DNA of 64,000 nt from Candidatus Woesearchaeota archaeon (lineage in GTDB: Archaea > Nanobdellota > Nanobdellia > Pacearchaeales > GW2011-AR1). This document shows positions 1-34,192 of the stretch, piece after piece (the stretch's first letter is position 1; each line of letters begins with the position of its first letter). The translations under genes and the position numbers were made by a program. A model generated the notes under the pieces. The model was given only the letters and a program-made list of their open reading frames with translations, ran no database searches and was not told where the DNA came from. The stretch covers positions 48,275 through 112,274 of the forward strand of contig CAZYIS010000001.1 of NCBI GenBank assembly GCA_964647695.1, read 5' to 3'.

Positions 1-3000
1 AGCCAAATCCAATGCGGGCTGCATATATTTCAATATGCTTCCATGGGAGATGGTAAATATTATTCTTCCACCACATTTCAAACATTTTCCAACCAAAGGA
101 GGCCTTCGATACTTTTCATTACATCCTATACATCTAAAGCCCTGCTGTGAAAACTTTCTCAGATTACCCCTAGTATCTCTTATGAAATGTCTTTCTATTA
201 CCAATCTAGATACGTCCGTTACATCCACGGCCCTTATTTTACTACAAAGCTGCATCATGGAATCTACTTTCTCCTGCATTGTAGGCAATAGCTTATAACT
301 AGAACATAAAGGCCCAAGATTCAAATCCGAAGTATCGTAGGCGAAGCCCAAATCAATGAATTCTCTTTCTCCTCCAAGCCTCTGTCTAACCTGCTCCAAT
401 TTAATTTCCGAAGGCATGGCGTGTCTTTCCCCTGCTTCAAATAATTCCAAAGGCATTTTATTAGAAACATCCACATCGAAGATCATATCATCCACTTCGT
501 TAGCCCTAATGTGCATATTCAAAACCAGTGGAGCGTCCTGAGTACCTCCTCTGTGGGATGGAATGAACTTTCTTGAGAAATTAATTAATAAATCCATAAG
601 CAACATAACTGCTGCTTCATCCCCATCACAATCTCTTCTCATGGCTGCATGAATATATGGGCTAGCCAACAGCGCCTGTATTTTTGAAAATCCAATTATT
701 CTTCCCACCACCGCCGATGAAGTATGGGGGGCCATACAAGCCAAATAAGCCCCAATCAAATCTTCCTTCTTATTTGCATTGAAATATTTTTCAACTTTGT
801 ATATCTTTTCCAACTCCTCATCTACAAAATGAGCCACATTAAGAAAAACATCATCTGCCTTTTCATCCGGAGAAATAGGACAAGCCGGAAGAATTATGTC
901 ATGGGGGAACAATTCAACCAACTGATTATCATTTTCCAAAATATTTCCCTTAACGTCCTTATCATACCCTAATTTTTTAGCTTTTTCTATACTAATGCCT
1001 ATTTCTCTAGGTCTAAAATGAGTTATAGGCATTTCAGTCATATCATATCTTATAGTTCCATCCTTATTTACATTTAAATTATGTTTTGCTCTTAAAATTC
1101 CCTTAGAAAGTAACTCACAACTATGTTCCTTATTACTTGTCCCCTTTACTCCTTTAATTACATAACCTATATCTTCATTTCTTAATCCGACGGATTTTCT
1201 AGCGTGTTCGAAATATTTAGCAATATCTATTTTTTTAGAACTATACTCCTGACCCATTTCATGTTGAGTGCACTTTTCATTTAAACTGTCATTGCACTCT
1301 CTACAATAAAATTGTTTTACACAATAATTCCCACATTTTTCACATTTAGGATAAACCGTTTCTTCCTTACAATTATTACAATAAAAATTAGTAAAGTCTG
1401 CTTTGACACTTCCCGCTTCAAGAGCAGATTGAAAACTCTTTAATCGGCCGCCTTCTTCTCCCACTGGAAATAGTACGTGAGGACTACCCGTAAGCTTTCT
1501 AAGCTTTGCTTTTTCCGGTCGCCCCATTCTAGCACCAATCATAGTTCCAAGTTTATCCCTTATTCTAACACTTGAAAGAGAATTAATTACTTCCAACACT
1601 TCTTTCTCAGAAATTTTTGCACTCAAAATATTCATTTCATCTTCCAAGATAATATTTCTTTTCTCAGTTATGTCTAATCCTAAATTAAATAACAAAGCAA
1701 AACTATCTTTTTCATTTAATATCACATTCTCTGTTGAAACCAGATGTTCACAACCGATTATTTCCAATGCACGTTTGCCCTTAACGAATCTTTCTGCATC
1801 GATTCTAGAGTAAGGTAATAATAGATGAGAATTATCCAGTTTTCCATGGGCAATCCAATCAACTAAAGCTAAAAATGAATCATATTTTATTTGAGTCCAG
1901 AAATAAATATAATTTGGATGAAGTGAAATTTTATATTTTAAAGACAGCTCTTTGGCTTTTTCAAAATCCACCATCAGCTCCGAATCGCCACCTTCTTTTC
2001 TTAATTCTTCTAACCAAAACTGCTCTATATATCCTTGTTTCTCCAAAGGATGATTTCTATTGGCAAAATCTCCAAATGGAACCAATATATCTCCCAAATA
2101 TAAAATTTCAGTCACATTATGATATATCTTTATGGCCGTATCATAATCTGCTATTCTTTTAACACTTCCATCCACCAATTTAACTATTGGTCCATCAAGA
2201 CTATCGCATGAAGCAACAGTGCATCCCTTAGTAGGCTTTTCTATTTTTAATTGAGTACCTATAGCAATAAAATCATTAGTAATACCCATGGTAGCTGGAC
2301 TTATGGCTAAAGTCGAATATCCGGTTGTTCTAGCTCGCCCATATCTTAATCTGAATGCACCCGAAGCTGATGGATGAGCAAATACAGGTCTTCCAGCAAC
2401 CAGATCCTGCATATAGGTTGCTCCTCCTCTAGTTCCTCCAGCTGCTTTTCCTTCTTTTATTTTCTTTTGTAGTTTAACAAACTCTTCAAGAAAAGTCCAA
2501 TCCGTTAATTTGAATCCTTTTTGTTTTAATTTTGTAACTCTTCCAAATATTTTAGGTGCTTTTTGTGCAATTCCTTCACCCATAACCAAACAAAATCCAG
2601 ATCTTATAAAATTAGTTTCGATTCTTGGAAGATCCTTATAATTATACACTTCCTTATCTTCGCTAGGGTCCCCTGTTAATTGAATAGGTATATTTCTCAT
2701 TAAGAATTCTATTTCCTGTTCCGAAGGAAGATACTGCAAATTTGTAACTCTTTCATGATACGCATAACATTCCTGAATACCTCTCTTAACTTCATCCTCA
2801 GTGGGATCATATTTTGCATAACCAAATACTTCTCTCAAATAATCCACCACCACTAATGAAAATCCTGCTTCTGTTCCTCCAGCCGATCTTATCGGTCCAG
2901 AAAAATAAGGTGCAAGAAAGTCTTTTCCATCCTTTGTTTTCTTTACTTTTAGTTGTATAAAACCCTCCAAAGGAGAAGAGACATAACCTAGAGTCATATA

Positions 3001-3339
3001 ACCTATAGCTACTCTTATTCCTGCCTCCATTGCTTCCAGATGACTAGTAAACTTACAAAACTTTTCCTTTGCAACTTCTTCTGCAATGGTTAAAGCCACG
3101 GCCGGATCCAATGAACCAAATTGCTTTTCCAATTCTAAAATTCTTTCAACAATTTTAGTATTCGAAACCTGAGGATATAACACCGAAATCAGACCCACGA
3201 CTCTTTCAGCCAGGGAGTTTGCCAAAGGAACTTCAACTTCTCTAGCCGGATCTAATCCTTTTTCCCTAGCACCATTTGCAATTAAATAATTTCTTTTAAC
3301 TTCTTTTTCTATTTCCTTAAAATATTCCTTGATGTTCAT
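1..3339 (-). CDS. polD2: DNA polymerase II (PolD) large subunit DP2, C-terminally truncated by window edge
   Basis: By-eye reverse-frame translation from the ATG at 3339-3337 reads through to the window start without a stop (not exhaustively checked). The ORF track lists no complete minus-strand ORF in this interval, consistent with one long ORF lacking an in-window stop. The start overlaps the DP1 stop (ATGA). Translation is DP2-like (GARMGRPEKA, Cys clusters CNNCKEE/CEKCGN, HRGGTQDAPLV, C-terminal CIGCN..CLKCGG zinc finger). It is adjacent to DP1 and cdc6. Confidence 0.75.
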   Translation of the reverse strand, partial: MNIKEYFKEIEKEVKRNYLIANGAREKGLDPAREVEVPLANSLAERVVGLISVLYPQVSNTKIVERILELEKQFGSLDPAVALTIAEEVAKEKFCKFTSHLEAMEAGIRVAIGYMTLGYVSSPLEGFIQLKVKKTKDGKDFLAPYFSGPIRSAGGTEAGFSLVVVDYLREVFGYAKYDPTEDEVKRGIQECYAYHERVTNLQYLPSEQEIEFLMRNIPIQLTGDPSEDKEVYNYKDLPRIETNFIRSGFCLVMGEGIAQKAPKIFGRVTKLKQKGFKLTDWTFLEEFVKLQKKIKEGKAAGGTRGGATYMQDLVAGRPVFAHPSASGAFRLRYGRARTTGYSTLAISPATMGITNDFIAIGTQLKIEKPTKGCTVASCDSLDGPIVKLVDGSVKRIADYDTAIKIYHNVTEILYLGDILVPFGDFANRNHPLEKQGYIEQFWLEELRKEGGDSELMVDFEKAKELSLKYKISLHPNYIYFWTQIKYDSFLALVDWIAHGKLDNSHLLLPYSRIDAERFVKGKRALEIIGCEHLVSTENVILNEKDSFALLFNLGLDITEKRNIILEDEMNILSAKISEKEVLEVINSLSSVRIRDKLGTMIGARMGRPEKAKLRKLTGSPHVLFPVGEEGGRLKSFQSALEAGSVKADFTNFYCNNCKEETVYPKCEKCGNYCVKQFYCRECNDSLNEKCTQHEMGQEYSSKKIDIAKYFEHARKSVGLRNEDIGYVIKGVKGTSNKEHSCELLSKGILRAKHNLNVNKDGTIRYDMTEMPITHFRPREIGISIEKAKKLGYDKDVKGNILENDNQLVELFPHDIILPACPISPDEKADDVFLNVAHFVDEELEKIYKVEKYFNANKKEDLIGAYLACMAPHTSSAVVGRIIGFSKIQALLASPYIHAAMRRDCDGDEAAVMLLMDLLINFSRKFIPSHRGGTQDAPLVLNMHIRANEVDDMIFDVDVSNKMPLELFEAGERHAMPSEIKLEQVRQRLGGEREFIDLGFAYDTSDLNLGPLCSSYKLLPTMQEKVDSMMQLCSKIRAVDVTDVSRLVIERHFIRDTRGNLRKFSQQGFRCIGCNEKYRRPPLVGKCLKCGGRIIFTISHGSILKYMQPALDLA

Positions 3340-4937
3340 TTTATATGTAACTCCCTTAGTTCTTCTTCATTTCCAAAATCAAGAATCTTTAGTTCGCGAG
3401 TTTTTAGATTTAAAACAGGAACTTTGCACGGCTCCGGAACATTTCCTACCTTTTCTTCGAAAGGTGTTTGTCCCTGCCAACAACTTCCAGTCATAATCAA
3501 TACACCATTATAATTTTCCACATCGATTCTGTGAACTTCCCCAGTACAAACCACATCCGGAACTTCACTAATCACAAGATTATCTTTTTCGGCATTTGGA
3601 ATATATATTGCTTCAGAGTGTAATGGAAATAGATGTCTTCTCTTCAGCATGTGCCTTACTGCCTTTGCCGGGCTAAGTTTTTGACTTCTCAATTCAGGAA
3701 TCTCATGAATAAATGTGTGTATGCTGTCTCCATGATACATTAATATTTTGAATTCCTTTTCATTTTCCAACAATTTTATCAAAGAAGGATTACTTACCAG
3801 AATTAAATTTTCTATATCATATAATGGTGCCGCATATCTTCTCCCAATTATGGGTTGAGGTTCGGCCACCCTTACCGCATCGTGCTGACCTGGACACATA
3901 AACATAGTAATATGTTTAGGTATTTGTTTAAGATAGGATGCTAGAAGAGCATACTGTTCCTCCATACTCTTTAATTTTAACAAATTTTCTTGACCTGGGA
4001 AAATACCTACTCCATCCACATTATCCCCTGAAATCATAATATATTTTATTTTCCTAGCAGTTTCATCGTTACTATTTATCCATTCCAAGAAGTTTTCAAA
4101 GCTCTTTTGCAAATGCTTGGCTCCACCAGCGTGAATATCCGAAAGAAAAGCCACATTAACTTCATTCTCAAATCTTACTTTTTCTCCATTGAAAGCATCT
4201 GGAAAAAATATATCATTAACAAATAGCATGTCCCTGCTTCCCGAAGCTCTGACTGCCACAATGTCATCCAATAAGAGCTCTTCCGCCTTTTTAAAAACTT
4301 CAACCTTATCGAATTTAATAAGAGTACTTATCTTTCCAGTTAAATCCTCAAAAGTAATTATTAAATTTTTATTTTTAGTTACTCTCTTTTCGCTAACAAT
4401 CCCTATGATAGTATAATTATTTCTATCGCTCCCTATCTTATTAATAGATACTAGATTCTGTAGGTCCGGTCTATTCATTAAAATCTTTTGTAGCTGATGA
4501 TATCTTGCTCTAAAATTACCTACAAAATCAGCCACCTCTAGTTTTTTATCATTTCTAGTTGTTGAATAAAATATTTTAAAGTCATTTCTAAGATTTTCCA
4601 AATTTTTTCTAGAAATATCCTTCAGCTTATCAAAATTCTCCTTTTTTTCAACTATTGCAGTTTCCTTAGTTATTTCTAAACTTAATCCTAATTTTATTAT
4701 TACATTTTCTACTTCAGTTTTAGATTCTCCATTCAAATTACTCACAAAATTCTTAACAAATCCAAAATTTTTGTTTAACACAGCACGATTTATTATTTTT
4801 TGACCTGAAAATCTTTCCAATCCTTCCAATAATTCTTTTGCATCCCTTGGATGTTGAAAGCTGTTCAATAAATCAAATATTTCTCTCTCTAATAACAATC
4901 CTTTCTCTCTTATTACATTCATTACTTCTTCTTTCAT
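3336..4937 (-). CDS. polD1: DNA polymerase II (PolD) small subunit DP1, calcineurin-like phosphoesterase exonuclease
   Basis: 533 aa. C-terminal phosphoesterase motifs (FLSDIHAGG, ISGDNVDGVG, CPGQHD, MYHGDS). N-terminal OB/linker region. Gene order polD2-polD1-cdc6-oriC. Confidence 0.85.
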   Translation of the reverse strand: MKEEVMNVIREKGLLLEREIFDLLNSFQHPRDAKELLEGLERFSGQKIINRAVLNKNFGFVKNFVSNLNGESKTEVENVIIKLGLSLEITKETAIVEKKENFDKLKDISRKNLENLRNDFKIFYSTTRNDKKLEVADFVGNFRARYHQLQKILMNRPDLQNLVSINKIGSDRNNYTIIGIVSEKRVTKNKNLIITFEDLTGKISTLIKFDKVEVFKKAEELLLDDIVAVRASGSRDMLFVNDIFFPDAFNGEKVRFENEVNVAFLSDIHAGGAKHLQKSFENFLEWINSNDETARKIKYIMISGDNVDGVGIFPGQENLLKLKSMEEQYALLASYLKQIPKHITMFMCPGQHDAVRVAEPQPIIGRRYAAPLYDIENLILVSNPSLIKLLENEKEFKILMYHGDSIHTFIHEIPELRSQKLSPAKAVRHMLKRRHLFPLHSEAIYIPNAEKDNLVISEVPDVVCTGEVHRIDVENYNGVLIMTGSCWQGQTPFEEKVGNVPEPCKVPVLNLKTRELKILDFGNEEELRELHIK

Positions 4938-4948
4938 TTTAGTTCCTA

Positions 4949-6157
4949 TTAAGAGTAAAGGGATTTTTCTAATATTTCTTTTGCTTTTTGTTTTATATTA
5001 GGTGCAAGCATGAGTTTTATTTCTCTCATCCTTCCATGCCTTCCTTTACTAATAACGTGAGTGTTAATCAAACCCAACATGTCAAATTCAGCCAAAATGT
5101 CTGAAACTCTTCTTTGGGTAAGTATTTCATTTTTAGTTTTTTCGCAAACTTCCTGATAATTATTATATACCTCTCCAGTAAATATATCACTATTGTTTTT
5201 TTGATCTGCTAAATTCATAATAGCATACAGAACCAATTGAAATTGTCTGGGTTCGCTTTCGATTATATCTAACATTTTATCTTTCTCTATTTTACTATTA
5301 GCCACGTCTATATGTAATAGAGTTATTTTCTTACTACTTTCTCTTTCAGCCAATTCTCCTGCAACCCTAAGTAAATCCAGCGCCCTTCTAGCATCTCCAT
5401 GCTCCCTAGCGGCATAGGCAGCACATTTAGCAATAACTCCTTCTTCCAGGATTGCATCTTTAAACGCACTATCTGCCCTTGCCTTTAATATATCTTGTAA
5501 TTGTAGGGCATTGTAGGGGGGAAATACTAGTTCTTCTTCTCCCAATGAACTCTTTACCCTAGGATCCAAATCATCCATAAACGTTAAACTATTACTTATA
5601 CCAATAATACTAATTTGAGCATTTTTTAATTCCGTATTTAATCTAGTAAGTGAATAAATGAATGTATCGGATATTTTTTTTACTGCTTGATCTATTTCAT
5701 CCAAAACCAAAATAACCATCTGTTTCTTATTATCAATTAATTCTACAAACCTCTTGTACACCTGATCCGTAGGCAATCCTGTAGAAGGCACATCTCCACC
5801 CAATTCACTTATAATTTCTGCCAACATTCTATATTCCGTATCTGCTACTTTCTTTAATTTACAATTAACATAAACAAACTTTAGACTATCTTCATCCGTT
5901 TTCTTCAAACGAGAAGTCATTTTACTAGCTACATGTTTAATAGATAGAGTTTTACCAGTTCCAGTTTTACCATAAACAAATAAGTTACTTACCTTTTCTC
6001 CTCTAAGAGCTGGAGCAAGTATGGATGCTATTAACTCAATCTGTTCATCTCTATGACCTATACTATCCGGATCATAATTTGATTGAAGCACAGTTTTATT
6101 TTTAAATAAATTATTATTTTCAAAAGAATCAAATATTGCATCTAATTTATCACTCAT
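4949..6157 (-). CDS. cdc6: Orc1/Cdc6 replication initiator (AAA+ with C-terminal winged helix)
   Basis: 402 aa. Walker A VYGKTGTGKT, Walker B VLVLDEID, sensor motifs. Lies directly beside an AT-rich intergenic region with ORB elements. Confidence 0.9.
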   Translation of the reverse strand: MSDKLDAIFDSFENNNLFKNKTVLQSNYDPDSIGHRDEQIELIASILAPALRGEKVSNLFVYGKTGTGKTLSIKHVASKMTSRLKKTDEDSLKFVYVNCKLKKVADTEYRMLAEIISELGGDVPSTGLPTDQVYKRFVELIDNKKQMVILVLDEIDQAVKKISDTFIYSLTRLNTELKNAQISIIGISNSLTFMDDLDPRVKSSLGEEELVFPPYNALQLQDILKARADSAFKDAILEEGVIAKCAAYAAREHGDARRALDLLRVAGELAERESSKKITLLHIDVANSKIEKDKMLDIIESEPRQFQLVLYAIMNLADQKNNSDIFTGEVYNNYQEVCEKTKNEILTQRRVSDILAEFDMLGLINTHVISKGRHGRMREIKLMLAPNIKQKAKEILEKSLYS

Positions 6158-6350
6158 TTTTACCTCTTTAATAAAAATTAGAACACTATCCTTATTATAA
6201 ACTTATCTATCCTCTAAGCATTGTTTCCTATGGAATAAAAAATAAGATTTTTGTATAATTTTTAAAAAAATCGAAAATACGACGATAATATGTTATTTTA
6301 CTAAAAATTATAGCTTTAATTTAAAAAAATAAATTCAAAAAATAGATTGA

Positions 6351-6380
6351 AACACCCACACCCTCACTTCCGTTGGAAAA
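6351..6380 (-). promoter_or_regulatory. ORB-like origin recognition box (reverse orientation)
   Basis: acacccacaccctcacTTCCGTTGGAAAaa. Dyad TTCCgtTGGAAA matches the ORB core tTCCAgTGGAAAc. The ACCC-rich tract is the complement of the ORB G-string. Confidence 0.6.
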
Positions 6381-6440
6381 ATAATTTAAAAAATATTTTA
6401 CGTGTAAACTGTTAATTAATAAGAACTTTAATATCTATTC

Positions 6441-6500
6441 TGTAATATATATAATATAATATATAATATATAATATATATATTTATAAATAAAAAATAGA
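6441..6500. repeat. (AT)n-rich duplex unwinding element-like tract
   Basis: tgtaatatatataatataatatataatatataatatatatattta lies between the two ORBs. Confidence 0.5.
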
Positions 6501-6543
6501 AAAAGAAAAAGTTAAAAAAATCATTTATAAATTTATTCATATA

Positions 6544-6576
6544 TTTCCAATAGAAATCATAGGGTGGGAGGGTAGG
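6544..6576 (+). promoter_or_regulatory. ORB-like origin recognition box (forward orientation)
   Basis: tTTCCAATAGAAAtcatagGGTGGGAGGGTAGG: ORB-like dyad followed by a G-string, inverted relative to the ORB at 6351-6380. Confidence 0.6.
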
Positions 6577-6752
6577 TCATTTTTTACTTTTTTCTATTAA
6601 TTTCATTCCTATTTCAATCTTTAATAATTCATTTTTAATTTTAAAAAAGTGCATTTCTAACTTTTTATCGTCTTTTTCTCTTGTTTCAGATACTAAAATA
6701 TATCTTAATGGATTATGGAAAAGTTTAAATATCATATCTTATACAATCAATT

Positions 6753-7013
6753 ATGACTTTAGACAAAAAACCACTAAAAGAGATCGTTGGAAAATTAGTT
6801 GTTACAAAAGAGGGTAAAAGATTAGGTATAGTTAAAGATATTACTTTTGAAACCAGAACTGGAGAATTAATTCAACTGGTAATAAAAGATCCTACACCTT
6901 ACACTAGAAATTTAAATTTAGAAGTTTCTTCTTCCAAGGACATATTAGTTCCTTATAATACAATAATTGCCATTGGTGATTTTGTAGTTATTTCAGAAGA
7001 AGACTTAGCTTAA
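6753..7013 (+). CDS. PRC-barrel domain protein
   Basis: 86 aa. Pattern VVTKEGKRLGIVKDITFETRTGELIQLVI is typical of small archaeal PRC-barrel proteins. Confidence 0.55.
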   Translation: MTLDKKPLKEIVGKLVVTKEGKRLGIVKDITFETRTGELIQLVIKDPTPYTRNLNLEVSSSKDILVPYNTIIAIGDFVVISEEDLA

Positions 7014-11587: not shown

Positions 11588-12285
11588 ATTCTATGGACAA
11601 GGATCCAATTAAAGAAGCATTTACCCGCGCAAAAATTGATATTCAATCACTTAAAGACCAATTCTCTTCACTATTAAATGAAATTCAAGATATTAAACGA
11701 ACTCTCAATACTATATCTAATAAACCCTCAGACAGACAGATAGACCAACAGACAAACCAACAGATAAATAAGGCAGATATCCAACAAGAAGATGAATTAT
11801 ACGAACCTCCAACATCTGATTGGCCCTATAAACGTCTAAAACCCCATGTTTACAGACTTTCCACAAGAAATAGGGGGGTTCCAACAGACAGACAGACAAA
11901 CCAACAGACAGACAGACAAACACATAATAAAGGGAAAATCGACAAAATAGCAGCCATTGACCAGGTTTCCCAGATACTAGAATCCCTAGATTCCATGAAA
12001 AAAGAGCTCAGATCGAAGTTTAAACATTTAACCAATCAAGAAATGCTAGTTTTTTCAACCATCTATCAACTTGAAGAAGAAGGTTTTTCCGTCGATTATC
12101 CTCTAGTTTCTCAGAAATTAAGTCTTACCGAGTCATCCATACGAGATTATGTTCTTAAGCTAACAAAAAAAGGTATTCCCATCGGTAAAATCAAAGAAAA
12201 CAATAAGAAAATCTTCCTTAAAATCTCTTCAGAGTTCAAGAAATTGGCTTCTCTGGATACGATTTTAGCTTTGAGAGAATTATAA
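11584..12285 (+). CDS. coiled-coil protein with C-terminal MarR-like winged HTH and internal DRQTNQQT peptide repeats
   Basis: 233 aa. Repeats PSDRQIDQQTNQQ and DRQTNQQTDRQTH are encoded by CAGA-type tandem DNA repeats. C-terminal region reads as wHTH (LTNQEMLVFSTIYQLEEEGF...IRDYVLKLTKKG). Confidence 0.5.
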   Translation: MNSMDKDPIKEAFTRAKIDIQSLKDQFSSLLNEIQDIKRTLNTISNKPSDRQIDQQTNQQINKADIQQEDELYEPPTSDWPYKRLKPHVYRLSTRNRGVPTDRQTNQQTDRQTHNKGKIDKIAAIDQVSQILESLDSMKKELRSKFKHLTNQEMLVFSTIYQLEEEGFSVDYPLVSQKLSLTESSIRDYVLKLTKKGIPIGKIKENNKKIFLKISSEFKKLASLDTILALREL

Positions 12286-13275: not shown

Positions 13276-13772
13276 AATTATATATCAAGTCCTATACTAT
13301 ATAAACCTTACGTCTATAGCCTCTAAAACCGTCGATAACCTTTTTAATTTTTCATCAAAAAATGCTCAGACAAACACCCTTAAACAGCAGACAAACACCC
13401 TCTATGCTCCAAAAAACAGCTGTTTGAACACTCAAAAACACCTGTTTTATCAATAAAACTGCTTCAAACACTCTTAATTTTATTAAAAAATCATAAAAAA
13501 ATGCTCAAACTTTTAAGCAAAACCATTAATTTTGATTATCTATAAAAACCGTTAAAAATTAACAATTAAAAACCGTTAAAAATTGATAAAATCGATATTT
13601 TTAGCATATTTTCATCAAAAAATAACAAAACATTTAAATACCTCCTATTCCTATAATAAGTATACACCTCTTTTTCCCGGAGGAGGACGTTTGATCATTT
13701 AAATCTAGTACGATTAAACTTCCTCTTCTAGGAGTTCAACCTCTTTTTCAGACAAAAAGTTTAAAAACCTCC

Positions 13773-13985
13773 GTGTATTATAGATTATACGAGGACAAAA
13801 AAATAATAAATATGGTAAAATATGGTTCAATTTGGTCAACATCAGACATTTTTTGTCAAAAATGTCACAAAAACACCCGCGGAGTACAATTGAAAAGTAT
13901 AGAAATGGCAAAACATGGTCTTTCTTTAGAACTTTGTAGCTCGTGTATCTCCGAAATTGCCAGTGATTCTTCAAATTTCGTCTAA
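13773..13985 (+). CDS. small zinc-ribbon protein (CxxC...CxxC)
   Basis: 70 aa with CQKCH and CSSC pairs. Preferred over the overlapping antisense 93-aa ORF 13714-13995, which looks like junk. Confidence 0.3.
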   Translation: MYYRLYEDKKIINMVKYGSIWSTSDIFCQKCHKNTRGVQLKSIEMAKHGLSLELCSSCISEIASDSSNFV

Positions 13986-14001
13986 AAATTAACAAAAAAC
14001 G

Positions 14002-26972: not shown

Positions 26973-26994
26973 AAACATCTTCTAGTTTCAAATT

Positions 26995-27230
26995 AGGTAG
27001 ACAACCTGGCGTGCTAGCCCTTCGCCATTCATCAGCGGGCTTTAGGTGGGGTCAAAGGAGCGAGTGAAATTGAAAGCTATGGGCCTTCAATCGGACGTTG
27101 ACGTATTGTCCTGTTCGATCTTGCTTCTGCGAAATGGGTCAGGCCTTGATCGGAGCAGCCCTAAACAGGACGCGTGGTGCTTACAGGGTAACAATGCCGA
27201 GAAAGATTGGAGATCACCTCTATTTTTCAT
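26995..27230 (+). ncRNA. signal recognition particle RNA (7S/SRP RNA), boundaries approximate
   Basis: A GC-rich island in AT-rich DNA. GGTCAGGCCttgatcGGAGCAGCCctaaACAGGACGCGTGGTGCttacAGGG aligns with the 4.5S/SRP helix-8 core (GGUCAGGUCCGGAAGGAAGCAGCC...GAUGACGCGUGUGCCGGG). A TATA-like ATATTTAAAAAC sits about 25 nt upstream. T5 at 27223-27227. Confidence 0.6.
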
Positions 27231-27286
27231 TTGAGCAAACTCCCCGTCTACATAATATATAAAAACCTGTTTCTATTCTTTTTATC

Positions 27287-28342: not shown

Positions 28343-29491
28343 ATGAAGTTTGCACATATGGGTGATTGTCATTTAGGGGGTTGGAGACAGCCGGAGCTAA
28401 AGGACCTAAATTTTGCAAGTTTTCAACTGGCCATAAATAAATGTATAAAAGAGAAGGTAGAGTTTGTTCTGATAACTGGAGATTTTTTTGACAATCCCTA
28501 TCCACCCATAGAGACATTGAAAGATGCATTTTCAGAACTGAAGAAATTAAAAGATCTAAACATACCTGTTTTCTATATAGCTGGAAGTCATGACTACTCT
28601 GCTTCTGGAAAAACATTTTTAGATGTACTAGAAAAAGCAGATTTTTGCAGAAATGTAATGAATCATGAAGAAAGAAATGGAAAATTAATTCTAATTCCTA
28701 CCATATACAAAAATGTGGCCATCTATGGCTTTCCTGGTAAAAGGTCATCCATGGAAGTTGATGACATAGAGAATATGATTCTCCAGGATTCTCCCGGTCT
28801 ATTTAAAATATTGATGCTTCATACTGCACTGAGAGATGCAGTTGGAACTTTACCCATAAAAGCAGTAGATCATCTTAAACTTCCAAAAGTAGATTATCTT
28901 GCCCTGTCTCATCTTCATATAAACTATAGTAAGGATGGACGAGTCTATTCGGGGCCCATCTTTCCTAATAATATTTCTGAATTAGAAGATCTACAGGAAG
29001 GTTCATTCTATATTTTCGATAATGGAAAAATCAACCGGATTGCTCTTAAACCCAAAGAGATAAAAGTTTTCAATCTAGAAGTAAAAAATGCCCTCTCAGC
29101 TACCGATGAAATAATTCAAAAATTATCGGGAGAATCATTGAATGATAAGGTAGTAATTCTAAAATTCTTTGGTTTAATAGAACAAGGTAAAACCTCAGAT
29201 ATAGACTTTAGTAAAATTGATGAATTTATTAAGAAAAAAGGAGCATTTGTAGTTCTAAGAAGCACCACCAGGTTACTAAGTGAAGAACAGAATGTTAAAT
29301 TAGATATTCTAGAATCTGAAAATTACGAAGAAGAAATAATAAACACTTTTGAAAAAAACAATCCCAATAAATTTAATCCTTTGATTAATAATCTAATAAA
29401 ATCTCTTCAGATAGAAAAAAATGAAGATGAAAAATCAGCCTCTTTTGAAGAACGTATAATCTCCGAATCCATGAAAATAATAAAACCATGA
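28343..29491 (+). CDS. mre11: DNA double-strand break repair nuclease Mre11
   Basis: 382 aa. Phosphoesterase motifs GDCHLG, TGDFFD, GSHD, HLH. Stop overlaps the rad50 start. Confidence 0.85.
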   Translation: MKFAHMGDCHLGGWRQPELKDLNFASFQLAINKCIKEKVEFVLITGDFFDNPYPPIETLKDAFSELKKLKDLNIPVFYIAGSHDYSASGKTFLDVLEKADFCRNVMNHEERNGKLILIPTIYKNVAIYGFPGKRSSMEVDDIENMILQDSPGLFKILMLHTALRDAVGTLPIKAVDHLKLPKVDYLALSHLHINYSKDGRVYSGPIFPNNISELEDLQEGSFYIFDNGKINRIALKPKEIKVFNLEVKNALSATDEIIQKLSGESLNDKVVILKFFGLIEQGKTSDIDFSKIDEFIKKKGAFVVLRSTTRLLSEEQNVKLDILESENYEEEIINTFEKNNPNKFNPLINNLIKSLQIEKNEDEKSASFEERIISESMKIIKP

Positions 29492-31542
29492 AAATAAAAA
29501 AATTAATAATAAAAAACATAAGAAGCTATGAGGATCAAGAAATAGATTTTCCAGATGGATCTTTACTCCTATCCGGGGATGTGGGTTCGGGTAAAACTTC
29601 CATTCTTCTAGCCATAGAATATGCGCTATTTGGTCTTCAGCCAGGCCAGACAGGCTCAGCACTTTTAAGAAATAATACTCAAAACGGAGGAGTTAGTTTA
29701 GAAATTGAATTAGATGGTTCAACCATTCTCATCGAAAGAAAATTAAAAAAAGGTAAAACCGTAACCAATGAATATTCTGCACTCACCATAGACGGAATAA
29801 AAACCGAATATGCCATAACCGAATTAAAAACTAGAATAATTCAGTTGCTGGGCTATCCTTCCGAGTTCATAAAGAAAAATAATTTGCTCTATAAGTACAC
29901 AGTCTATACTCCCCAGGAACAAATGAAACAAATAATTTCTGAAGATCCGGAAATCAGATTAAACATGCTGAGACACATATTCGGTGTTGAGAAATATAAA
30001 CGAATAAGAGAAAATCTTGTCGTTCTATTAAATAGATTAAAAGATGAATCAAAATTATTACAGCTGGAAATCAGTGCCGTAGATTCGGACAAAATTAGAT
30101 TAACTTCGACCAGAAGCTTCATTACTCTTCTGGGGGAAAAAATAGTTTCCCAGGATCATTTGATAGATGGATTAAAGGTAACTCGAAAGTCCATAGAAGC
30201 AGAAGTAGTTGAGTTGGAAAAGAAAATAAAGGAAAAAGAGAAATTAGAAATAGAATTAGAAAAGACCAAGGTGCTCTATTCTTCTAAAAGAGAAAATCTT
30301 TCAGACATGGATAGGGAACATATAGAATTAGAATCCTTCATTCAAAGCATTCCTTCCGATTTCAATGAGAATGAACTTTTAGAAACCATTGATAAGATAG
30401 CTAAGAACAATAAGGACTTGGATACAACCCAATCAAGTTTTATAGACTGTTTAAGTCATATTAATTCTCTTAAACAAAGAAAAACCGAAGCTCTAGCAAA
30501 AAAAGAAAGAGTTTTCAAAATAGATATGTGCCCTACTTGTTTACAGGATGTGCCTCCTGCCCACAAACACAACATATTCAACGAAACTGAGCAGCTAATT
30601 TCAGCCATTTCAAAGGAAATAGAAAATTTCGAAGCTCGAAAAGTAATTCTAACAAATCAACTGGATATTATAAAGGATAAAAAGCAAGACCTAGAAGAAA
30701 AAAAGATGAGACTACAGATTCTAAAATCAAAACTCCCAGAGATTGAAAGGGCCAAGAGTAAAATTTCTATTATTCTAAAAACCAAAGAAAATCTAAAAAA
30801 TGATGTTTTACTTTTATTAAAGCACATGGATGGATTGAAAGAATCCATACTAGCTTTTACCAGATTCAATACTCAGTATAAGACAAAACAACAGGAACTT
30901 AGAGATGCATTTCTAAATGAAAAAAACGCTGAAATCTCCCTTGCCGAGCTAAAGAAAGAGTTGGAAATAACCAATAAGGAAATATTACTGTTGGAAGATA
31001 CCATAAAACAAAAAGAAGGTAAGAAAGAAAAGTTAAATGAAATACTCGAGCTTAGCGATTGGCTATCCAATCAATTCATTGCTTTGATTAATTTCACCGA
31101 AAGAAATGTTATGCTTAAGCTCCGTACCGAGTTTTCAAAACTTTTCAGCAAATGGTTTTCAATTTTAGTCCAGGATATATTCGAAGTCCAGTTGGATGAA
31201 AACTTTACACCCATAATCATGCAATCAGGCATAGAAATGGACTACTCATTCCTTTCCGGCGGAGAAAGAACCGCTGTAGCCTTAGCCTATCGTCTAGCAC
31301 TAAATCAAACCATTGGAACCGTCATGACTTCCATCAAGACTAAAAATCTAATTATACTCGATGAACCTACCGAAGGATTCTCTGAAGTTCAAATAGATAA
31401 AATGAGAGAAATATTAATAGAATTAAAAGCAAAACAACTCATAATAGTCAGTCATGAACAAAAAATGGATAGTTTTGTCGACAACATAATAAAAATAAAG
31501 AAAGAAGACGGAATTTCTAAGGTTGAAGTCAAATCAAATTAA
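29488..31542 (+). CDS. rad50: DNA double-strand break repair ATPase Rad50 (short form)
   Basis: 684 aa. Walker A GDVGSGKTS, long coiled coil, zinc hook CPTC, signature LSGGE, Walker B IILDEPT. Confidence 0.85.
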   Translation: MKIKKLIIKNIRSYEDQEIDFPDGSLLLSGDVGSGKTSILLAIEYALFGLQPGQTGSALLRNNTQNGGVSLEIELDGSTILIERKLKKGKTVTNEYSALTIDGIKTEYAITELKTRIIQLLGYPSEFIKKNNLLYKYTVYTPQEQMKQIISEDPEIRLNMLRHIFGVEKYKRIRENLVVLLNRLKDESKLLQLEISAVDSDKIRLTSTRSFITLLGEKIVSQDHLIDGLKVTRKSIEAEVVELEKKIKEKEKLEIELEKTKVLYSSKRENLSDMDREHIELESFIQSIPSDFNENELLETIDKIAKNNKDLDTTQSSFIDCLSHINSLKQRKTEALAKKERVFKIDMCPTCLQDVPPAHKHNIFNETEQLISAISKEIENFEARKVILTNQLDIIKDKKQDLEEKKMRLQILKSKLPEIERAKSKISIILKTKENLKNDVLLLLKHMDGLKESILAFTRFNTQYKTKQQELRDAFLNEKNAEISLAELKKELEITNKEILLLEDTIKQKEGKKEKLNEILELSDWLSNQFIALINFTERNVMLKLRTEFSKLFSKWFSILVQDIFEVQLDENFTPIIMQSGIEMDYSFLSGGERTAVALAYRLALNQTIGTVMTSIKTKNLIILDEPTEGFSEVQIDKMREILIELKAKQLIIVSHEQKMDSFVDNIIKIKKEDGISKVEVKSN

Positions 31543-32299: not shown

Positions 32300-34192
32300 A
32301 TGGCAGATATCTTAAAGAACATAAAGGAAGAATTACCTGGAGTTGTATCAGACGCAGTCTTCGAAGGAGCAAATATAGTTCTCTATACTGAAGATAAAGA
32401 ATTTTTCAAAACCGGAGAATCAAAAGTTAAAGCTGTTGTAGATAAAATAAAAAAGAGAATAGAACTAAGAGCTGAACAAGCAATTCTTCTTTCCGAAGCA
32501 GAAACTGAAAAAACCATTCGTGCATTGGTTCCTGAAGATGCTGGAATTACTGCAGTTATTTTCGATGTTCAAAGATCTTCCGTAGTTATAGAAGCAAAAA
32601 AACCGGGACTAGTTATTGGAAAACAAGGTTCAATTTTATTTGACATTAGAAAATCCACTTTTTGGGTTCCAAGTGTAAGAAGAAGTCCAATCATCGCAAG
32701 TAAGATTACTGAAAAAATTCGTTCAGTTCTCTATGCCAATAACACCTATAGAAGAAAATTCCTTAATGATATAGGAAAAAAGATTTACAACGAATGGAAT
32801 CCAGATAAAATGGACATGTGGGTAAGATTAACTTACCTGGGCAGCGGTCGACAAGTAGGTCGTTCATGTTTATTGCTTCAAACACCAAATTCAAAAGTTT
32901 TGCTTGATTGTGGAATAAATCCTGCCATCGCCGATGGTCCTGAAAAATTCCCTTACCTAAATGTTTCTGAAGTTGGAGATTTAAATTCCATCGATGCCAT
33001 TATTCTATCCCACGCACACCTAGATCACTCGGGACTAATTCCTTATTTGTATAAAATGGGTTATAGGGGACCAATCTACATGACCGAACCTACTAGAGAT
33101 ATTTCTGCACTTTCTGCCCTTGATTTTGTAGGTATTGCCTATAAGCAAGCAGCATCTCCATTATTCAGAGGAGAAGACGTAAAAGAAATGGTAAGACATT
33201 CCATTTGTTTAGATTACGGAGAAGTCACTGATATAACTCCAGACATTAGAATTACTTTATACAATGCAGGACACGTACTTGGTTCAGCTCAAGTTCATAT
33301 AAATATTGGAAATGGATTACATAATTTAGTTTACGGAGCAGACACGAAATATGGAAAGACTCGTTTGCTTGATCCTGCCGCAAATCATTTCCCTAGAGTT
33401 GAAACTCTTACCATTGAATCTACCTATGGTAGCAAAGATGATATTCTTCCTCCAAGAAAAGAAACCGAAGATAAATTTATTGAAATGGCAAAAAAAGTTA
33501 TTGAAAGAAATGGAAAAGTTTTACTTCCCGAACTAGGTCTTGGTCACGCTCAAGAAACATTACTTAGAGTAGAAGAAGCAGTGCGTCTAGGTGAACTACC
33601 TAAAATACCAGTATACATAGACGGTATGATCTGGGATATTACTGCGATTCACACTGCCTATCCTGACTTTTTATCTGCAAGTGTTAGAAATCAAATCTAC
33701 CAAGATAATAATCCATTCGCATCCGAATTATTTACTCGTGTAGGTTCTCCTATTGAAAGAAAAGCAGTAATTGAAGGCGGACCTTGCATAATCATCGCAA
33801 CTTCGGGAATGTTGGTCGGAGGAGCATCCGTAGAATATTTCAAAAATCTAGCATCTAATCCTAACAATATGATTGTATTTTCCTGTTACCAAGGTATTGG
33901 TTCCGTAGGAAGACAGGTTCAGGAAGGAAATAAGGAAATATACATGGGTGCTGGAGTTGAAAGTGAAAAAATAACTGTCAATATGGAAGTTGAAACTCTT
34001 AAAGGACTATCTCAACACTCCGGAAGAAACGAATTATTACAATACATAAGTAGAATGGTTCCAAAGCCAAAGAAAATTATTATTAATCACGGAGAAGTTT
34101 CAAAGTGTCTAGATCTAGCTTCAACTCTATACAAATTAAATAAAGTTGAAACCGTAGTTCCAAGAAATCTTGAAACCATAAGATTGAAATAA
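32300..34192 (+). CDS. KH-domain beta-CASP ribonuclease aCPSF1 (FttA-type transcription termination factor)
   Basis: 630 aa. N-terminal tandem KH. Metallo-beta-lactamase HAHLDHSG. Beta-CASP and RMMBL C-terminus. Confidence 0.85.
   Translation: MADILKNIKEELPGVVSDAVFEGANIVLYTEDKEFFKTGESKVKAVVDKIKKRIELRAEQAILLSEAETEKTIRALVPEDAGITAVIFDVQRSSVVIEAKKPGLVIGKQGSILFDIRKSTFWVPSVRRSPIIASKITEKIRSVLYANNTYRRKFLNDIGKKIYNEWNPDKMDMWVRLTYLGSGRQVGRSCLLLQTPNSKVLLDCGINPAIADGPEKFPYLNVSEVGDLNSIDAIILSHAHLDHSGLIPYLYKMGYRGPIYMTEPTRDISALSALDFVGIAYKQAASPLFRGEDVKEMVRHSICLDYGEVTDITPDIRITLYNAGHVLGSAQVHINIGNGLHNLVYGADTKYGKTRLLDPAANHFPRVETLTIESTYGSKDDILPPRKETEDKFIEMAKKVIERNGKVLLPELGLGHAQETLLRVEEAVRLGELPKIPVYIDGMIWDITAIHTAYPDFLSASVRNQIYQDNNPFASELFTRVGSPIERKAVIEGGPCIIIATSGMLVGGASVEYFKNLASNPNNMIVFSCYQGIGSVGRQVQEGNKEIYMGAGVESEKITVNMEVETLKGLSQHSGRNELLQYISRMVPKPKKIIINHGEVSKCLDLASTLYKLNKVETVVPRNLETIRLK

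Follow-up and report, generated by a model that had tools for sequence, protein, structure and literature searches.

In Pyrococcus, the chromosomal replication origin (oriC) comprises two long inverted origin recognition boxes (ORBs), mini-ORBs and AT-rich regions beside cdc6, and its boxes share an invariant TTCC/GAA core (PMC1904270). Each ORB of Sulfolobus oriC1 is bound by one Orc1-1 monomer with a defined polarity, and the inverted ORB2 and ORB3, both of which are individually required for bidirectional firing, flank a duplex unwinding element (DUE); inside the DUE, a short motif, ucm, is bound by a separate protein (UBP), and the authors of that work asked whether other lineages have analogues (PMC12141716). 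At Haloarcula hispanica oriC1, the inverted ORBs carry at their outer ends essential G-strings, which are read by the AAA+ domain (PMC3936714). Literature searches on ORBs, origin structure or skew in DPANN archaea or Pacearchaeota found nothing specific. Here, we analyse a 64,000-nucleotide stretch of the genome of a Candidatus Woesearchaeota archaeon (Pacearchaeota-like, DPANN; contig CAZYIS010000001.1, positions 48,275 to 112,274, referred to as the window), in which the spacer upstream of orc1/cdc6 (6158-6752) resembles these systems. In our judgement, this spacer is probably the Orc1/Cdc6 recognition module of an oriC1-type origin that is conserved across Pacearchaeales-like DPANN archaea.

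A sequence-only reading of this DNA had described the spacer as gene-free and AT-rich, and with small corrections of its boundaries (595 bp) this description is accurate: the G+C content is 19.0%, compared with 32.7% window-wide, and the spacer ranks second by size among the gene-free gaps of the window. The two inverted ORB-like elements with G-strings and the third mini-ORB-like dyad at 6224-6236 that the same reading had proposed were all found where it had placed them. ORB1 (ORB-B), the distal full ORB TTCCAATAGAAATCATAGGGTGGGAGGGTAGG (6541-6576, + strand; profile E 2e-5), is inverted with respect to ORB2 and ORB3; its dyad TTCCAATAGAA occupies 6545-6555 and its G-string GGGTGGGAGGGT 6562-6573, the whole of 6545-6573 being TTCCAATAGAAATCATAGGGTGGGAGGGT. 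ORB2 (ORB-A), the proximal full ORB (6349-6382, - strand; profile E 7e-5), has its dyad TTCCGTTGGAA at 6368-6378 and its G-string CACCCACACCC at 6352-6363, and its reverse complement, from 6378 down to 6352, is TTCCAACGGAAGTGAGGGTGTGGGTG. Both full ORBs thus consist of a TTCC-N4-GAA dyad and a G-string in inverted arrangement, with the G-strings pointing outward from the AT tract, i.e., that of ORB2 faces cdc6 and that of ORB1 faces away from the AT core. ORB3, the promoter-proximal mini-ORB TTCCATAGGAAACAATGCTTAGAGG (6207-6238, - strand; profile E 3e-3), combines the mini-dyad TTTCCTATGGAAT at 6224-6236 with a weak G-string; the sequence TTCCATAGGAAACAATGCTTAGAGG runs from 6235 down to 6211, approx. 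80 nt upstream of the cdc6 ATG, and the element adjoins the cdc6 TATA box.

The ORBs were located by regular expressions and an nhmmer profile; a general-purpose repeat search missed the ORB pair on account of a 2-nt indel that distinguishes the linkers of the two arms. The dyad TTCCANNRGAA occurs 11 times in 64 kb, compared with 2.6 expected, and three of these occurrences are inside the 595-bp spacer; the probability of at least three dyads in the spacer is 2e-6 when estimated from shuffles and 7e-5 when estimated from the rate outside the spacer. Within the window, the G-string pattern is found only at the two full ORBs, and an ORB profile built from relatives gives four matches over the whole window at E<0.01, namely ORB1, ORB2, ORB3 and a coding motif at 11858. 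These figures bear on an alternative according to which the spacer is an ordinary divergent promoter region and its ORB-like words and AT tract are due to chance in AT-rich DNA or are sites for an unrelated regulator. Both flanking genes do have promoters in the spacer, and TATA-like words are expected in DNA of 19% G+C; however, neither point accounts for three dyads in 595 bp (P 2e-6 to 7e-5), for G-strings that are unique in the window, for elements that match the ORB core of characterised origins, or for the conservation of position, orientation and subtype in relatives whose Cdc6 is just 64-79% identical. We therefore regard this explanation as very improbable.

ORB1 and ORB2 flank the AT core, and the interval between their dyads is 166 bp. 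The tract that had been taken for an (AT)n element is indeed an A/T tract located between the ORBs (6443-6498, 56 nt; TTTATAAATATATATATTATATATTATATATTATATTATATATATTA in the cdc6 direction), but it is not a true (AT)n repeat: the best unit reported by Tandem Repeats Finder is the 7-nt TAATATA (6.4 copies), and a 2-nt reading gives only 75% matches, so that the tract is better described as a TAATATA-like heptamer repeat. It is the longest A/T run of the 64 kb, the next longest being 27 nt, and at scales of 60, 100 and 200 nt no other segment of the window forms a less stable duplex. It can be regarded as the A/T-only core of a putative DUE.

Conservation was assessed by a scan of one genome per species, which yielded 80 loci with Cdc6 proteins 64-79% identical to that of the window (81 loci with the window); the nearest Cdc6 relatives are from metagenome-assembled genomes (MAGs) labelled Pacearchaeota, Nanoarchaeota or Woesearchaeota. 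At this level of Cdc6 identity, synonymous and non-coding sites should be saturated, and shared non-coding features are thus likely to be under constraint. The dyads had been expected to recur in orthologous spacers, and they do: the same three ORBs appear there in the same order and orientation and with the same subtypes, together with the AT core. Across the 81 loci, the density of matches to the ORB profile, which was itself built from regex-defined ORBs, is 3.5 per kb over the 800 nt preceding cdc6 and 0.078 per kb elsewhere, a 45-fold difference; at E<=1e-3, there are 48 matches upstream of cdc6 and one elsewhere. Among the 64 loci with at least 650 nt upstream, the inverted distal ORB was detected at E<=0.1 in 38 and the cdc6-facing ORB in 49, and of the 27 loci with both the distal and the cdc6-facing ORB, 26 have their longest A/T run between the two. 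Most of the 15 loci without a regex match show, by eye, ORB-like dyads at the expected positions and in the expected orientations.

The module of the relatives has a fixed order: the PRC gene and its TATA box, ORB1, TTTAWAWA, a T-rich tract, the AT core, a variable AT-rich stretch, ORB2, ORB3 and, finally, the cdc6 promoter ATAGATAAGTTTATAAT. ORB1 (consensus TTC(C/T)AtaaGAAAt.A.gGGGtgaG.G, n=34) is located at about -290 to -640 and always has the same orientation, ORB2 (consensus TTCCAtagGAAat.a.GGTGTg.G, n=31) at -130 to -260, and ORB3 (consensus TTCCAtagGAAATa..gGTttgaG, n=25) at -74 to -87, and the G-string subtypes are position-specific among the three. The interval from ORB to ORB is typically 160-200 bp. 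In 29 of 39 aligned loci, TTTAWAWA is found 3-22 nt inward of the ORB1 dyad, and the AT core is 62-81 nt from ORB1, while the distance from the AT core to ORB2 varies from ~100 to >400 nt. The AT core sequence TTATATTATAT is present in the spacers of 46 loci in one orientation and of 7 in the other, with a single match in ~780 kb outside, and the 16-mer AATATTTATATTATAT occurs in 22 spacers, in one orientation throughout and with zero matches elsewhere. Judging from these counts, conservation of the AT core extends to its sequence and orientation and goes beyond mere AT-richness. Within genomes that are ~90% coding, a non-coding block such as the 595-bp spacer has been kept, and the retention of the module at about 400-600 bp argues that it works.

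The initiator encoded beside the spacer can be compared with structurally characterised proteins. Among PDB entries, S. solfataricus Orc1-1 (2QBY_A, E 5e-103) ranks first and A. pernix ORC1 (2V1U, E 3e-93) second as a match to the window Cdc6, far ahead of Orc1-3 (6e-42) and of the Orc1-2-type chains 1FNN and 1W5S (1e-18 to 6e-16); by sequence similarity, the window Cdc6 belongs to the Orc1-1 clade. According to a figure legend, 2V1U represents A. pernix ORC1 bound to an ORB element of oriC1 (PMC3607249). The window Cdc6 is identical to a protein annotated as 'MAG: orc1/cdc6 family replication initiation protein [archaeon]', and no second cdc6 gene was found in the 64-kb window.

With respect to gene content and anatomy, the locus resembles the origins of Pyrococcus abyssi and P. 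furiosus, in which a single cdc6 beside the origin is followed by the genes of the small and large subunits of PolD, two long ORBs form an inverted repeat, and at least one additional mini-ORB, AT-rich DNA and the TTCC/GAA core are present. The claimed order polD2-polD1-cdc6-oriC was borne out by Pfam and matches that of Thermococcales. However, the window spacer has three ORBs, whereas Pyrococcus oriC has many mini-ORBs; the G-strings of the window are of the GGTGTG or GGGTGAGGG types, unlike those of Pyrococcus, and the conserved, oriented sequence of the AT core is a further difference. Sulfolobus oriC1 shares with the window the initiator clade, inverted ORBs around an AT-rich DUE beside orc1-1 and a third ORB, although the ORB-to-ORB interval is 166 bp in the window, compared with ~130 bp for the whole Sulfolobus module. 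Both systems have a short sequence-specific element in the DUE, i.e., ucm in Sulfolobus and a core of the TTATATTATAT type with the TTTAWAWA box in the window. The ucm sequence ATTATACAAAC itself has no match with up to two mismatches between ORB2 and ORB1, so that it is absent from this interval, and a different conserved core takes its place in the DUE. The polarity of the H. hispanica oriC1 is the same as that of the window, with a run of C at the left and a run of G at the right on the upper strand. Firing in Sulfolobus has been shown by marker frequency analysis, whereas the origin proposed here is predicted from sequence. Judged by every one of these features of sequence, the spacer is an oriC1-type origin, that is, an origin of an already known kind.

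Two matches to ucm lie outside the ORB1-ORB2 interval. One, a 10/11 match (ATTATACAAAA) at 6249-6259 on the - strand between ORB3 and ORB2, is probably due to chance in AT-rich DNA, and the other is a 9/11 match at 6738.

While the anatomy, its conservation, the clade of the initiator and the instability of the AT core can be observed directly, a mechanism for the module can be proposed by homology with Sulfolobus, Aeropyrum, Pyrococcus and haloarchaeal oriC1, from which Orc1 binding, helicase loading and firing at the spacer would be expected. The sequence makes it very probable that the module is bound by Orc1. The single Orc1-1-type initiator would bind ORB1 and ORB2 as monomers in opposite orientation, its winged helix contacting the TTCC-N4-GAA dyad and its AAA+ domain the outward G-string, and ATP-bound Orc1 would recruit MCM to the 166-bp interval between the dyads. 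Nowhere in the window would the duplex open more easily than in the 56-bp A/T-only core of this interval. ORB3, located beside the cdc6 TATA box, may allow Orc1 to regulate its own gene. In addition, the oriented AT core and the TATA-like box suggest a further sequence-specific step, which could involve a factor, single-strand recognition or origin-internal transcription.

Not all observations agree with the view that an origin fires here in the usual manner, and the compositional data in particular weigh against it. The sequence-only reading had proposed cumulative GC skew as a check, with a minimum located elsewhere counting against it, and no extremum was found at the spacer: the cumulative curve declines monotonically from end to end of the 64 kb, and both flanks have the same sign in 81 loci. 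Because raw skew is confounded by gene direction, the effects of gene direction and of strand were separated. Right of the spacer, third-position coding skew averages -0.23 in 36 + strand genes and +0.23 in 31 - strand genes, and pooled four-fold-site coding skew is -0.63 and -0.02, respectively (per-gene means of -0.64 and -0.02, 21 genes each; Mann-Whitney p=3e-7), with intergenic DNA showing the same sign as four-fold sites. To the left, cdc6, DP1 and DP2 fit the same strand class (z 0.6-2.1) and are 3.5-5.3 standard deviations from what flipped polarity would predict. When four-fold-site strand bias is expressed in the cdc6 orientation (r) and measured upstream and downstream of cdc6, 55 loci (closer relatives and the window) give r_up of +0.45 [0.41, 0.50] and r_down of +0.34 [0.26, 0.41], and 26 loci of a distant clade give +0.35 and +0.30; in these comparisons, the cdc6 side covers 6-10 kb only, and the loci are not fully independent, as their flanking genes are orthologous. 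Four relatives on contigs of 210-575 kb, in which genes were called independently over 10 kb on either side, yield r_up of +0.21 and r_down of +0.11, and r of +0.13 beyond polD. Beyond composition, conserved ORB clusters can exist unused: Thermococcus kodakarensis is reported to replicate in the absence of both Cdc6 and the origin presumed for it (PMC5663688).

In these genomes, there is thus a strong G/C strand bias that is independent of the direction of transcription: the sense strand of cdc6 is G-rich, |r| amounts to about 0.3-0.45 (window and L001-L087), and the polarity relative to cdc6 is constant in 50 of 51 downstream flanks. The bias appears to be strongest within ~16 kb of the spacer on both sides, a figure that is based on few genes. 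Recent surveys found archaea to be mostly without such strand-specific bias (PMC12999951). Expression or codon usage was considered as a source of the bias and rejected, since strand separation is near-perfect (33/36 genes on one side and 32/34 on the other), genes of low expression, e.g., those of Mre11 and Rad50, are among the + strand class, and the sign of intergenic DNA agrees. A switch just beyond polD was likewise rejected, as the sign persists ~5 kb past DP2.

A compositional polarity switch is not obligatory at archaeal origins; nonetheless, the strength of the strand bias makes the test informative in this case. Within the available flanks, there is no leading/lagging switch at the spacer, whereas the Pyrococcus oriC was reportedly first located by just such a skew switch by Myllykallio and co-workers in 2000. 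A bias this strong should change sign at an origin that has fired in both directions over evolutionary time, and long-term two-way firing at this site is thus not supported. If the spacer origin fires, its behaviour over evolutionary time is not the usual symmetric two-way one, and the options that remain are one-way or barrier-limited replication, a dominant origin located elsewhere, or a bias of non-replicative nature. The proposal that the spacer anchors the window at the replication origin consequently stands with regard to the origin-type Orc1 module, whereas a bidirectional origin is contradicted by composition.

Against this background, two other explanations have to be weighed. The locus might be bound by Orc1 yet replicated passively, with the ORBs serving cdc6 autoregulation and/or a weak or dormant origin while a fork from elsewhere sweeps through. 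This would agree with a strand bias that is uniform across the spacer, the whole 64 kb and the 81 loci, as well as with the position of ORB3 against the cdc6 TATA box, and two reports provide precedents for dormant or dispensable archaeal origins (PMC4595724, PMC5663688). Autoregulation does not, however, call for a distal ORB in inverted orientation or for an AT core conserved in sequence and held at a fixed distance, and streamlined genomes (the median of Pacearchaeales is 739 kb; bioRxiv 10.64898/2026.05.13.725050) would be expected to have shed a useless 400-bp module. Moreover, the 64 kb contain one Orc1/Cdc6 gene and no other ORB cluster, and hardly any relative departs from the common polarity of the bias relative to cdc6 (50/51 downstream flanks). 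Passive replication of the locus thus appears to be unlikely, although more probable than the other alternatives.

Alternatively, the origin may be active but one-way or limited by a barrier, such that only the fork through cdc6-polD escapes and the second either fails to form or is stopped immediately; the PRC side would then always be replicated by the fork returning round the circle, and the strand bias would be continuous through the origin. Such a scheme reconciles a canonical, conserved anatomy with a bias that has the same sign on both flanks and is tied to the orientation of cdc6. The module is, in addition, asymmetric, since the spacing of ORB1, the TATA-like box and the AT core is fixed (62-81 nt) and that between the AT core and ORB2 ranges from ~100 to >400 nt; this asymmetry and the constant polarity of the bias relative to cdc6 are compatible with one-way firing but do not demonstrate it. 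The bias also seems to be strongest near the spacer, although this gradient could be gene-specific. On the other hand, local data cannot tell one-way firing from a fork passing through, Sulfolobus needs both inverted ORBs for bidirectional firing (PMC12141716), and our literature search found no report of a cellular archaeal chromosome that replicates one way. A one-way or barrier-limited origin is therefore rather doubtful. The specific version in which replication from the spacer is effectively one-way, with a single productive fork via cdc6-polD or a polar barrier and perhaps a start at the unit formed by ORB1, the TATA-like box and the AT core, is equally doubtful. In this version, Pacearchaeales chromosomes would have a strand bias of bacterial strength that continues without a break past the sole Orc1-type origin module they possess. 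To our knowledge, no cellular archaeal chromosome replicating in this manner is known, and if this version were true, the present one would be the first with unidirectional replication.

Thus, an Orc1/Cdc6 recognition module of the oriC1 type remains the preferred interpretation of the spacer. As an origin call it is mostly routine. Nonetheless, it provides the first explicit ORB/DUE map that we have found for Pacearchaeales (Nanobdellota), and this map supplies a searchable consensus consisting of three ORB types and the AT core. In the DUE, the oriented core and the TATA-like box, which keeps a constant distance to one ORB, form a candidate equivalent of the ucm/UBP system in Sulfolobus. Complete Nanobdellota genomes are rotated to ORC1 by convention (bioRxiv 10.64898/2026.05.13.725050); if the bias proves to be unbroken at the module in complete genomes, either the rotation 'ORC1 = origin' is wrong for this order or replication is not symmetric.

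Several smaller elements accompany the ORBs and the AT core. Beside ORB1, a TATA-box-like element (TTTATAAA, 6524-6531; TTTAWAWA in relatives) is possibly an origin-internal promoter or a factor site. Between this box and the AT core, the T-rich tract TTTTTTTAACTTTTTCTTTTT (cdc6 direction; 6500-6520, - strand) is conserved as pyrimidine-rich in aligned spacers. A. pernix Orc1 prefers T-rich single strands (PMC8287685), and by analogy this preference may be relevant to the tract. Between the AT core and ORB2, the short motif GTTCTTATTAAT (GTTCGTWTTAAT in relatives; 6415-6426, - strand) occupies the same place in many aligned spacers; GTTCGTWTTAA is not significantly enriched in the window overall.

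The genes around the spacer are arranged in a conserved manner. The orc1/cdc6 gene of the Orc1-1 clade (4949-6157, - strand, 402 aa; Pfam Cdc6_C, Cdc6_lid and AAA) is followed by the genes of the PolD small subunit DP1 (3336-4937, - strand; DNA_pol_E_B and Metallophos) and the large subunit DP2 (1-3339, - strand, its 3' part cut by the window edge; PolC_DP2_N, PolC_DP2_central and PolC_DP2_cat, E 1e-78 to 1e-112), which is downstream of DP1 in relatives too. All three genes are transcribed away from the spacer, in the window as in L082 and L084-L087. On the opposite side, the spacer is bounded by a divergent gene for a PRC-barrel protein (6753-7013, + strand; Pfam PRC, E 7e-11), a conserved neighbour in relatives. 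The region 6162-6201 (- strand) presumably acts as the cdc6 promoter and leader, as it contains the TATA box TTTATAAT (6194-6201) inside the conserved ATAGATAAGTTTATAAT block, which is also found ~40 nt upstream of cdc6 in relatives, and the Shine-Dalgarno sequence GAGGT (6162-6166). The TATA box of the PRC-barrel gene is read as TTTAAATA (6724-6731, + strand), with relatives arranged alike, and its position suggests that the mRNA would be leaderless.

Two further candidates for genes in the spacer were considered. A known RNA gene was rejected, as a scan of the spacer against Rfam gave no family even at E<=1. A 52-aa open reading frame (ORF) called by the source pipelines in two relatives (L081, 2949-3107; L083, 703-861), the equivalent of which in the window is at ~6576-6734 on the - strand between ORB1 and the PRC promoter, is likely spurious because it overlaps the PRC TATA box and this stretch is shorter in relatives.

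In 19 of the 80 relatives, the contig stops no more than 900 nt upstream of cdc6, usually at or beside the AT core (L001, L003, L009, L010, L012, L014, L018, L019, L022, L024, L029, L042, L051, L059, L062, L068, L074, L075 and L080), and the scaffolds L008 and L060 have runs of N there. Evidently, the A/T-only core breaks short-read assemblies, and origin spacers are therefore expected to be under-represented in MAGs.

The fourth match to the ORB profile, TTTCCACAAGAAATAGGGGGGTTCC (11858-11879, + strand; E 2e-3), lies 5.7 kb from cdc6 inside an ORF (11593-12285) that has no Pfam match and whose C-terminal part is winged helix-turn-helix-like by eye. It encodes S-T-[GR]-N-x-G-V-P-T-D-R-Q, and in 16 relatives the codons of this peptide are near-invariant at synonymous sites (TCC in 15/16, GGG in 15/16 and GTT in 16/16). 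Flanking (GACA)n tracts are read as DRQT repeats, and the gene stays 1.8-5.7 kb from cdc6 in relatives (the motif was found in L007, L035, L039, L056, L057, L063, L066, L067, L070, L072, L073, L078, L079, L084 and L087). By analogy with the ORB cluster in the Pyrococcus dp1 gene, the motif may represent an Orc1 site lying within a coding region.

Elsewhere in the window, genes for an Mre11-like phosphoesterase and a Rad50-like SMC ATPase are adjacent (28343-31542 and 32300-34192, + strand), followed by those for a proteasome subunit and FttA (aCPSF1); with such ordinary content, the window can be considered chromosomal. An archaeal signal recognition particle (SRP) RNA match at 26994-27254 (+ strand; 60.6 bits, E 3.7e-13) is missed by a standard scan because its score is well under the Rfam gathering score of 96.5; as the match covers 261 nt and the model has 317 positions, this RNA is apparently a shortened DPANN version. 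At 726 nt (29% G+C), the gap at 13276-14001 is the largest gene-free one in the window; it has no Rfam match at the gathering threshold and contains two copies each of the short direct repeats AAAACCGTTAAAAATT and CAGACAAACACCCT.

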